Under the pieces are notes generated by a model, which had not been told where the DNA came from, ran no database searches, and saw only the letters and a list, made by a program, of their open reading frames with translations. A stretch of DNA of 45,927 nucleotides. It comes from Patescibacteria group bacterium. GTDB lineage: Bacteria > Patescibacteriota > Minisyncoccia > Phycocordibacterales > Phycocordibacteraceae. Of the stretch, positions 1,380-21,478 are shown one piece after another; the stretch's first letter is position 1, and each line of letters opens with the position of its first letter. A program made the translations under genes and the position numbers. The DNA lies in assembly GCA_018970465.1 (NCBI GenBank), contig JAGWWI010000004.1:1-45927 (forward strand), given 5' to 3'.

Positions 1380-1451
1380 GCTCTCATCGTTCAACGGATA
1401 GGACATCTCCCTCCGAAGGAGGAAATGCAGGTTCGATTCCTGCTGAGAGCA
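1380..1451 (+). tRNA. tRNA-Arg(CCG)
   Basis: Acceptor GCTCTCA/TGAGAGC, anticodon arm TCTCC-CTCCGAA-GGAGG, T arm GCAGG-TTCGATT-CCTGC; 72 nt, CCA not encoded. Confidence 0.95.
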
Positions 1452-9959: not shown

Positions 9960-10032
9960 TCCGCCCCCCGGGGAACGATCCCGGAACCTACCGCTTAAAA
10001 GGCGGTTGCTCTACCGATTGAGCTAGAGGCGG
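9960..10032 (-). tRNA. tRNA-Lys(TTT)
   Basis: Acceptor CCGCCTC/GGGGCGG, D arm GCTC..GAGC, anticodon arm ACCGC-CTTTTAA-GCGGT, T arm CCGGG-ATCGTTC-CCCGG; TATAAT 8 nt upstream. Confidence 0.92.
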
Positions 10033-19865: not shown

Positions 19866-19914
19866 CAGCACGCAAGGCGCCGCGGCCCAGAGGGCCGCGG
19901 CGCCTTGCGTGCTG
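19866..19914. terminator. Perfect 23-bp hairpin between convergent genes
   Basis: CAGCACGCAAGGCGCCGCGGCCC-AGA-GGGCCGCGGCGCCTTGCGTGCTG. Confidence 0.8.
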
Positions 19915-19921
19915 CTACTGG

Positions 19922-20134
19922 CTAACCCCCACTCTCGTCCGCGTCGGCTTCGCCCTCGCCGCGACGATTCGCAAAGTTGCCGGGGTTATTCTCCTTGCCC
20001 TGGCTGTGGCCGCCCTTCCTGCCGATCTCGGAGTAGTACTCCGGACCGCGCTCTTTGGCGACCTTCTCGCCGCCCTTCCGGCCGGCCTCTCCGACCGACA
20101 TCTTGCCGTCGTGCGCCTGTTCCTCGCTGGCCAT
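19922..20134 (-). CDS. KGG-motif general stress protein (GsiB/YciG-like)
   Basis: MSVGEAGRKGG...GPEYYSEIGRKGG...NPGNFAN. Confidence 0.85.
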   Translation of the reverse strand: MASEEQAHDGKMSVGEAGRKGGEKVAKERGPEYYSEIGRKGGHSQGKENNPGNFANRRGEGEADADESGG

Positions 20135-20194
20135 AGCTCTAGTGAGTTATGTCTCCTAATACCGACGCTTACCACAGTATCTTCCGCGCCATGA

Positions 20195-20417
20195 ATGGCG
20201 GATTAACCGAGAAGCGCTCCTTCATCGCCCAAAACGGAGCGATCCCGCCCATGCTCCCTCGGGCAAAACCCGCCAGAGGCGGGGTAGACGAAACGCTTGA
20301 GGGTAGCCCCAGCCACGCTGCCGAAGCAGGTACCAGAGCGCCCTTAGGGAGTCGCCCGAGGCCGTCAAGCCTTGCCCGAAGGAGTATGCGCAGGATCAAA
20401 AAGAAAATCCGCTCCAT
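20195..20417. ncRNA. Candidate structured non-coding RNA of unassigned family
   Basis: Closing stem 20195-20204/20406-20417; ungapped 26-nt helix 20241-20266/20372-20397 with 22 Watson-Crick pairs; inner helix 20295-20300/20365-20370; small hairpins including minus-strand CTGC-TTCG-GCAG. Confidence 0.6.
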
Positions 20418-20485
20418 CCAAAGAGCAGACAGGACTGACTCATCGCCTTCCCGTGTGATAAAATGCTAGCACACGACCCCTTTTT

Positions 20486-21478
20486 ATGTCAAGCCCGTCC
20501 GCCGACCCCGCCCTCCCCGCCGCCTCGCTCGACGCCGCCTTGCGCCCGACTGAGTGGGAGGAGTACGTCGGCCAGCAGCAGGTAAAGGCGAACGTGCAGA
20601 TCGCTCTTGAGGCGGCCAAGAAGCGCGGCGGGATGCCCGAGCACCTCCTCTTCTACGGCCCGCCGGGGGTCGGGAAGACGACCTTGGCCCACCTCATCGC
20701 CCTCACGCTCGGCGCGCCGTTGAAGTCGACCTCCGGGGTCGCCGTCGAGCGCGCGGCCGACCTCGCCGCGATCCTCACGAACCTCGATCCGGGCACCGTG
20801 CTCTTCATCGACGAGATCCATCGCCTCCCCAGGAAGCTCGAAGAATTGCTCTACCCCGCCCTCGAATCCGGGCATCTCGATATCGTGCTCGGCAAGGGCC
20901 CCTCGGCGCGCACGGTCGAGCTCGCCTTGCCGCCCTTCACCCTCGTCGGGGCGACGACCCGCATCGCGGACCTCTCGGGCCCCTTGCGCTCGCGCTTCGG
21001 CGGCGGGACGTACCAGCTCGACTTCTACACGAGCCAAGACCTGCGCGACATCATCCGCCGCTCGGCGAAGCTCCTCGGGATCGTGATGCCCGAAGAGGTC
21101 GTCGAGATGGTCGCGGCGCGAAGCCGCGCCACCCCGCGCGTCGCGAACTCCCTCGTGAAGCGCATGCGCGATTATTCGGAGGTGAAGGAGGCACCGCTCT
21201 CGGCCGCCCTCGCCGAAGAAGCCTCCGCCCTCTTCGGCATCGACGCCCTCGGCCTCACCAAGGACGACCGTCGCTACCTCGACACCTTGCGCGAATCATT
21301 CCGCGGCGGCCCGGCTGGGATCCGCGCCTTGGCCTCCGCGCTCCACGAAGAGCCCGAGACCCTCGAGCACGTCTACGAGCCGTATCTGCTGCGCCTCGCC
21401 TTCATCGAGCGCTCCCCCCAAGGCCGCCTCCTCACGTCCAAAGGCCGCGGCTATTTGAGCGGCGAAACCCTTTTGTGA
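20486..21478 (+). CDS. ruvB: Holliday junction branch migration ATPase RuvB
   Basis: LRP, GPPGVGKTTLA, FIDEIHRL, GATTR, PLRSRFG, EPYL. Confidence 0.97.
   Translation: MSSPSADPALPAASLDAALRPTEWEEYVGQQQVKANVQIALEAAKKRGGMPEHLLFYGPPGVGKTTLAHLIALTLGAPLKSTSGVAVERAADLAAILTNLDPGTVLFIDEIHRLPRKLEELLYPALESGHLDIVLGKGPSARTVELALPPFTLVGATTRIADLSGPLRSRFGGGTYQLDFYTSQDLRDIIRRSAKLLGIVMPEEVVEMVAARSRATPRVANSLVKRMRDYSEVKEAPLSAALAEEASALFGIDALGLTKDDRRYLDTLRESFRGGPAGIRALASALHEEPETLEHVYEPYLLRLAFIERSPQGRLLTSKGRGYLSGETLL

Follow-up and report, generated by a model that had tools for sequence, protein, structure and literature searches.

The window analyzed here is a 45,927-nt stretch of contig JAGWWI010000004.1 from a Patescibacteria group bacterium (assembly GCA_018970465.1). 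Within it, a spacer separates a KGG stress gene (19922-20134, minus strand) from ruvB (20486-21478, plus strand). Pfam matches identify the neighboring products as a KGG repeat protein (PF10685, 22.4 bits), RuvB (215.6 bits), a PilB-like type II/IV secretion ATPase (341.7 bits), and YebC. Downstream of ruvB come yebC and a RuvC-like reading frame, which together form a Holliday-junction gene context. On the other side, the pilB-like and KGG genes converge. A G+C-rich long inverted repeat at about 19868-19915 lies between their ends and is probably a two-way terminator.

Every pairing that the original prediction listed for this spacer is present in the sequence exactly where it was placed. The longest, a 26-nt helix between 20241-20266 and 20372-20397, comprises 22 Watson-Crick pairs, one G-U pair, and three mismatches. 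Folding of the spacer was compared with that of shuffled sequence on both strands. The plus strand reached -94.3 kcal/mol (z -3.84) and the minus strand -114.8 kcal/mol (z -4.78), and none of 200 shuffles equaled either value. The candidate outer stem (20195-20204, its 3' half on the minus strand, with 20406-20417) occurs in the minimum-energy folds of this genome only. Together with the alternative GGAGCG/CGCTCC pairings, it falls outside the conserved core, in DNA that cannot be aligned in relatives. The RNA is present as a single copy in this genome. A protein-coding reading based on frames of 106 and 82 aa was rejected, as a stop-free frame exists in just 16 of 57 sequences and the lengths are spread evenly over the three residues modulo 3.

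Homologs are widespread among close relatives. At E<=8e-5, BLAST matched 34 of 36 further genomes of the genus, with one borderline case (G019, E 0.004) and one genome without a match (G002). In the genus alignment, the conserved part covers approximately 20241-20402, and both flanks are unalignable. Applied to 29 sequences, RNAalifold returned 35 pairs for the plus strand, 18 of them compensatory, at -35.1 kcal/mol, against 53 pairs for the minus strand, 25 of them compensatory, at -58.8 kcal/mol. An alignment of 41 sequences drawn from many families shows pairing in 93.6% of cells and variation on both sides in 45 of 53 pairs, figures to be read with the reservation that genomes within one clade are non-independent samples. 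None of 500 shuffles matched this structure, and slid control structures paired in 37-48%. The top 20 mutual-information pairs among 57 sequences were all pairs of the model. The same scan detected no pseudoknots or other tertiary pairs; its extras consisted of additional P1 pairs and one covarying position in the arm, which alternates between C-A and U-U. The consensus contains two branch points, and the side hairpins Pa and P2 both covary. These comparisons demonstrate a real structured RNA with a covarying four-way junction, whose predicted core reads from 20402 to 20241.

Support in relatives differed among the helices first described. Covariation upheld P1 (the 26-nt helix) and two hairpins, P2 (CCCGCC/GGCGGG) and P4 (CTGC-CGAA-GCAG), but not the GCTTGA/TCAAGC helix. 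The latter was rejected, given that relatives use those bases in other helices. A different alternative pairing, between the 5' strand of P1 and the 3' strand of the arm, was seen by eye in low-GC members and dropped because it is impossible in this genus.

The weak preference for the minus strand in the original prediction proved to be right. Folding energy, G-U tallies, promoters, and orientation strongly support this strand, and the plus-strand reading was rejected on the same grounds. Read on the minus strand, the C-A mismatches that the plus strand shows in P1 and the arm turn into G-U pairs; at one such P1 pair, the plus strand has C-A in 25 of 29 sequences. One arm helix exists solely on the minus strand, where G-U pairs stand beside fully compensated pairs. 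The apical loop on that strand is UUCG or a relative thereof. A contrary sign comes from two invariant tandem arm pairs, G-U when read on the plus strand but C-A mismatches when read on the minus strand; this helix, taken by itself, favors the plus strand.

Signals for initiation and termination are arranged around the same strand. The promoter pattern was defined as TTGAC[ATG], 16-19 nt, and TAnnnT, located at most 120 nt upstream on the RNA strand. This sigma-70 pattern occurs in 50 of 57 class-wide loci, with the extended TGn element in 47. By comparison, it was found once among 57 on the opposite strand, and in 1/57 and 0/57 on the two strands of a downstream control stretch. A run of at least four U within 12 nt after P1 is present in 23/57 loci versus 4/57 on the control side, and P1 is usually continued by a U tract or followed by a predicted terminator distinct from it. 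The features point to an independent small RNA gene with its own predicted promoter and, often, its own terminator on the structured strand. The predicted parts of this gene are collected in Table 1.

Table 1. Predicted parts of the RNA gene and of the adjoining ruvB promoter, in window coordinates.
Feature	Position	Strand	Basis or remark
-35 hexamer TTGACA of the predicted RNA promoter	20487..20492	-	promoter scan; on the ruvB start codon (ATG 20486-20488, plus)
Extended -10 (TGC + TAGCAT) of the predicted RNA promoter	20463..20471	-	promoter scan
Species-specific 5' leader	20403..20456	-	contains a terminator-like hairpin (20430-20407)
Conserved core, 162 nt here, four-way junction of P1, Pa, long arm, and P2	20241..20402	-	
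P1, 5' strand of the closing stem	20372..20397	-	pairs with 20241-20266; covariation
P1, 3' strand of the closing stem	20241..20266	-	covariation, as for the 5' strand
Pa, short junction hairpin	20360..20371	-	helix 3 of the model
Long arm, four stacked helices with small bulges	20286..20357	-	helices 4-7 of the model
P4, hairpin capping the arm, loop UUCG on the RNA	20317-20329	-	
P2 hairpin	20269..20283	-	helix 8 of the model
Tail after P1, ending in UUUU (20234-20231)	20231..20240	-	terminator-like tail in the scan
Predicted ruvB promoter (CTGACT, 18 nt, TG, TAAAAT)	20435..20464	+	TGnTAnnAT conserved upstream of ruvB (genus alignment)

Two covariance models were built, R1 from the genus and R2 from the 41 sequences, and the core in this genome scores 146.2 and 120.7 bits with them, respectively. 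P1 contains about 23 pairs, the inner nine of which are conserved in sequence across the class. All 19 of its modeled pairs vary on both sides in some sequence of the 41-sequence alignment. Pa has one invariant form within the genus; class-wide, its sequence and its length both change. In the long arm, AGGA/UCCU is kept class-wide, together with CUGGU/RCUGG and its tandem G-U pairs. The capping hairpin P4 appears dispensable, being absent in 2 of 57 sequences (L059, L070). P2 pairs in 99.4% of cells, and for each of its four modeled pairs some sequence shows a change on both sides. Its loop is variable, and the RNA contains no conserved loop sequence.

In this genome, the predicted RNA promoter matches the consensus at 10 of 12 positions, with an 18-nt spacer and a TG preceding the -10 hexamer TAGCAT (20468-20463). 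Promoter spacing would place the RNA start near 20456. The 3' end is likely the UUUU of the tail. The leader hairpin is followed by a U tract (20406-20397) that extends into the first bases of the core. A hairpin with a U run also appears in the leaders of many relatives, where the distance from the -10 element to the first model position ranges from 1 to 77 nt. Such a terminator-like hairpin may act as an attenuator or as a stabilizing 5' hairpin, and the reading of the locus as a stand-alone RNA has no explanation for it. In three loci of the genus (L013, L019, and L020), the DNA separating the RNA from the ruvB promoter contains a conserved insert common to all three, about 130 nt long.

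The distribution of the RNA extends well past the genus. Strict scans recovered full-length copies in 64/151 genomes of the order with R1 and matches in 56/151 genomes of the class with R2; both counts are lower bounds, since unfiltered searches recovered full-length copies in genomes scored negative by the strict scan. With filters off, four of five such genomes yielded a full-length copy beside ruvB (98.3, 53.4, 35.3, and 26.6 bits), and the fifth gave a partial match cut by the contig end. A sensitive search of the stretches upstream of ruvB in 60 class genomes missed by the strict scan gave 48 matches at E<=0.01, 44 of them at E<=0.001, these E-values being rough on account of the short calibration of the models. 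All 48 best matches point away from ruvB. Taken together, the searches place the predicted RNA in the majority of class genomes. It is not universal there, as 12 of the 60 genomes gave no match in the sensitive search (one stretch being cut by a contig end). These include family f137, in which neither the strict scan nor the sensitive search detected the RNA in any of five genomes (G209, G248, G279, G307, and G333). Its absence from this family would reflect either lineage-specific loss or strong divergence. One genome carries two tandem copies on the same strand (G090:C1:65112-65497, locus L050; 73.4 and 49.1 bits).

Outside the class, signals fade. In a draw of 151 genomes, a strict scan for copies in other classes of the phylum found nothing beyond the taxonomic family of this genome. 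Among 40 stretches upstream of ruvB from other classes, six gave weak matches, the best at 31.6 bits, and five of the six face away from ruvB. These are possible distant relatives.

The genomic address is conserved across the class. When the RNA is taken in its 5' to 3' direction, ruvB precedes it on the opposite strand and diverges from it, and the pilB-like gene runs toward its 3' end. ruvB adjoins the RNA in 27/29 order loci and 27/29 class loci, and the pilB-like gene does so in 29/29 and 28/29, respectively. Within the genus, ruvB lies on the same side in 29/29 loci, and the KGG gene adjoins the RNA in none of 29. In most class genomes, the predicted gene is flanked by ruvB, which diverges from it, and by a pilB-like ATPase gene that converges on it, and the KGG gene of this window is, by this comparison, a local insertion.

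Searches for known RNA families gave no match for the element. At gathering scores, the whole window contains only two Rfam matches, both tRNA genes (1380-1451, plus strand; 9960-10032, minus strand). A search of the region against the 4227 families of Rfam 15 at E<=10 returned three sub-threshold chance matches only, among them dauA (17.6 bits versus a cut-off of 45) and speF (10.1 versus 37). Twenty related loci gave no match to Rfam 15 at E<=1, and a narrow Rfam scan of locus L058 returned only plant or animal microRNA or lncRNA noise. The element had also been judged to lack the hallmarks of RNase P RNA and tmRNA, and both of these were located elsewhere in the genome (C34:11475-11757, 141.4 bits, and C34:27396-27817, 74 bits, respectively). 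No description of the RNA was found in a library of papers searched for non-coding or structured RNAs of CPR, Patescibacteria, and Parcubacteria and for 6S RNA in the CPR. The family is apparently undescribed. Its newness lies at the family level, as structured RNAs encoded by genes of their own are familiar in bacteria. The original prediction had offered a new CPR non-coding RNA, a riboswitch-like leader, or a divergent 6S RNA; of these, the new non-coding RNA stands, conserved in the class and without a match in Rfam 15.

Two further RNA families of the clade have a bearing on its identity. The signal recognition particle (SRP) is missing in this genome and its relatives according to both protein and RNA searches. 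Neither the small nor the large bacterial SRP RNA (RF00169, RF01854) was detected in this genome at E<=10, and among 41 genus genomes none had an SRP RNA above the cut-off. The M domain of Ffh (PF02978) was found in 0/61 relatives, 0/151 class genomes, and 0/91 phylum genomes, with 14/14 controls positive. This genome also lacks an SRP-type GTPase above the cut-off and any open frame of at least 150 aa with two of the three SRP-GTPase motifs. An earlier study describes Parcubacteria as having lost ffh and ffs (PMC4508563), which fits the organism studied here.

As for 6S RNA, the class possesses a rod-shaped 6S-type RNA of its own (loci L101-L114) that the Rfam model mostly misses. RF00013 (gathering score 46.4 bits) gave matches in 10/151 class genomes at E<=0.1, one of them above the cut-off. 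A model built from five sub-threshold RF00013 matches of the class (R3) describes an unbranched rod of 50 pairs with no branch point and recovers a 6S-type RNA in 70/151 class genomes. None of six fetched 6S-type loci adjoins ruvB or the pilB-like gene. In 24/151 class genomes, and likewise in G200, the 6S-type RNA and the RNA described here occupy different loci. RF00013 found nothing at E<=10, either in 20100-20520 or in the whole genome studied here; R3 and an nhmmer search with six class sequences (E<=100) likewise detected no 6S-type RNA in this genome.

These data allow the identities proposed for the RNA to be weighed. A riboswitch or 5' leader would share its multi-helix junction, similar size, and intergenic position, and in this genome the KGG gene does follow in the same orientation, some 100 nt beyond P1. 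Such a role in KGG expression is nonetheless extremely improbable. The gene is absent from every genus locus compared, and what comes next in the order and class is a convergent gene, whose 3' end faces the RNA. Moreover, the RNA has its own promoter and a terminator-like stem with a U tract, it lacks a conserved same-strand gene downstream, and no Rfam riboswitch matches it. The probability that it is a highly divergent SRP (4.5S) RNA is close to nil, and this identity was rejected for want of both a model match and the partner Ffh. The absence of a recognizable SRP RNA from the genus would leave room for such a molecule, and the two resemble each other as small housekeeping-type RNAs with a long helical body. 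The apical loop, however, is the conserved core of SRP RNA, whereas the apical hairpin here is variable and sometimes missing. Closer in outline is 6S RNA, also a stand-alone, single-copy RNA of 150-200 nt with a long closing stem formed by its two ends, a long apical arm, and conservation across a large clade. The strong predicted promoter suggests that the RNA described here is probably abundant too. Its size and the long stem and arm that flank a central region loosely recall 6S RNA, which was not found in this genome. Orthology is contradicted by the coexistence of both RNAs at separate loci and by the four-way junction in place of a rod. A 6S-like RNA that mimics a promoter to bind RNA polymerase holoenzyme, whether as a second paralog or as a functional replacement in lineages such as this genome where no 6S-type RNA was found, is an unlikely proposal. 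Unlike the open bubble of 6S RNA, the central region has two strands that both form covarying hairpins (Pa and P2), and the region fails to match RF00013 even when searched alone.

A different kind of explanation centers on the promoters. The -35 element of the RNA promoter is the reverse complement of the first ruvB bases (ATGTCAA), and a -35 element covers an in-frame ruvB start candidate in 27/47 loci. The ruvB -10 box (20459-20464) and the RNA -10 box (20463-20468) share 2 bp. The locus could accordingly be viewed as chiefly a cis device, in which a strong divergent promoter throttles ruvB through occupancy of the ruvB promoter and the transcript is mainly a compact terminator and insulator guarding the pilB-like gene from antisense transcription. 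The overlap of the -10 boxes, the frequent placement of the -35 element on the ruvB start, the behavior of P1 and its U tract as a terminator at many loci, and the fixed position across the class all agree with this account. We nevertheless consider it rather unlikely. A terminator needs one hairpin, but this RNA has four helices and several bulges that covary and keep specific bases across the class. A mere insulator would leave the two tandem copies in G090 unexplained, and in 20 of the 47 loci the -35 element lies off the ruvB start candidate.

The reading of a stand-alone non-coding RNA gene on the minus strand, whose product would act in trans as a protein-binding scaffold and whose promoter would compete with that of ruvB, is the one we hold to be probable, albeit with appreciable reserve. 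The RNA would most likely serve as a scaffold for protein rather than through base pairing with mRNA, because the bases kept across the class lie in helices, bulges, and tandem G-U pairs, and there is no conserved single-stranded seed. At the DNA level, the position of the -35 element on the ruvB start and the overlap of the -10 boxes imply that a polymerase bound at the RNA promoter should exclude initiation at ruvB. Such blocking would tie ruvB output to the activity of the RNA promoter, and this coupling would help explain why the two genes have stayed together. The overlapping promoters could also keep the synteny conserved passively, with no functional link to ruvB.

As to the complex that such a scaffold might join, we put forward only tentatively, and with more doubt than conviction, that the RNA is a subunit of a new class-specific housekeeping ribonucleoprotein, standing beside RNase P RNA, tmRNA, and 6S RNA. 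The gene context invites a narrower version in which the four-way junction of the RNA acts on the Holliday-junction machinery, for example as a junction-shaped decoy, and this we judge very improbable.

Precedents exist among bacterial RNAs such as the raiA motif RNA and OLE RNA, structured RNAs that are not known to have a defined biochemical function. As in those cases, the RNA described here was defined by comparative analysis and combines strong covariation, a narrow taxonomic range, and conserved bases that suggest protein or tertiary contacts. It differs from them in belonging to another clade, in occupying a fixed address between a pilB-like gene and ruvB, and in having no match in Rfam 15.

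Genomes of the candidate phyla radiation are below 1 Mb, carry almost no spare DNA, and contain few known non-coding RNAs. The RNA described here differs from RNase P RNA, tmRNA, and 6S RNA, and it occurs in a clade from which SRP RNA is missing. The analysis provides a calibrated structural model, predicted gene boundaries, and a fixed address by which the RNA can be located in new assemblies. The predicted back-to-back overlap with the ruvB promoter constitutes a directly testable arrangement. Given such tiny genomes, a near-consensus promoter, and retention in most of the class, this RNA likely plays a central role in the bacteria that carry it.
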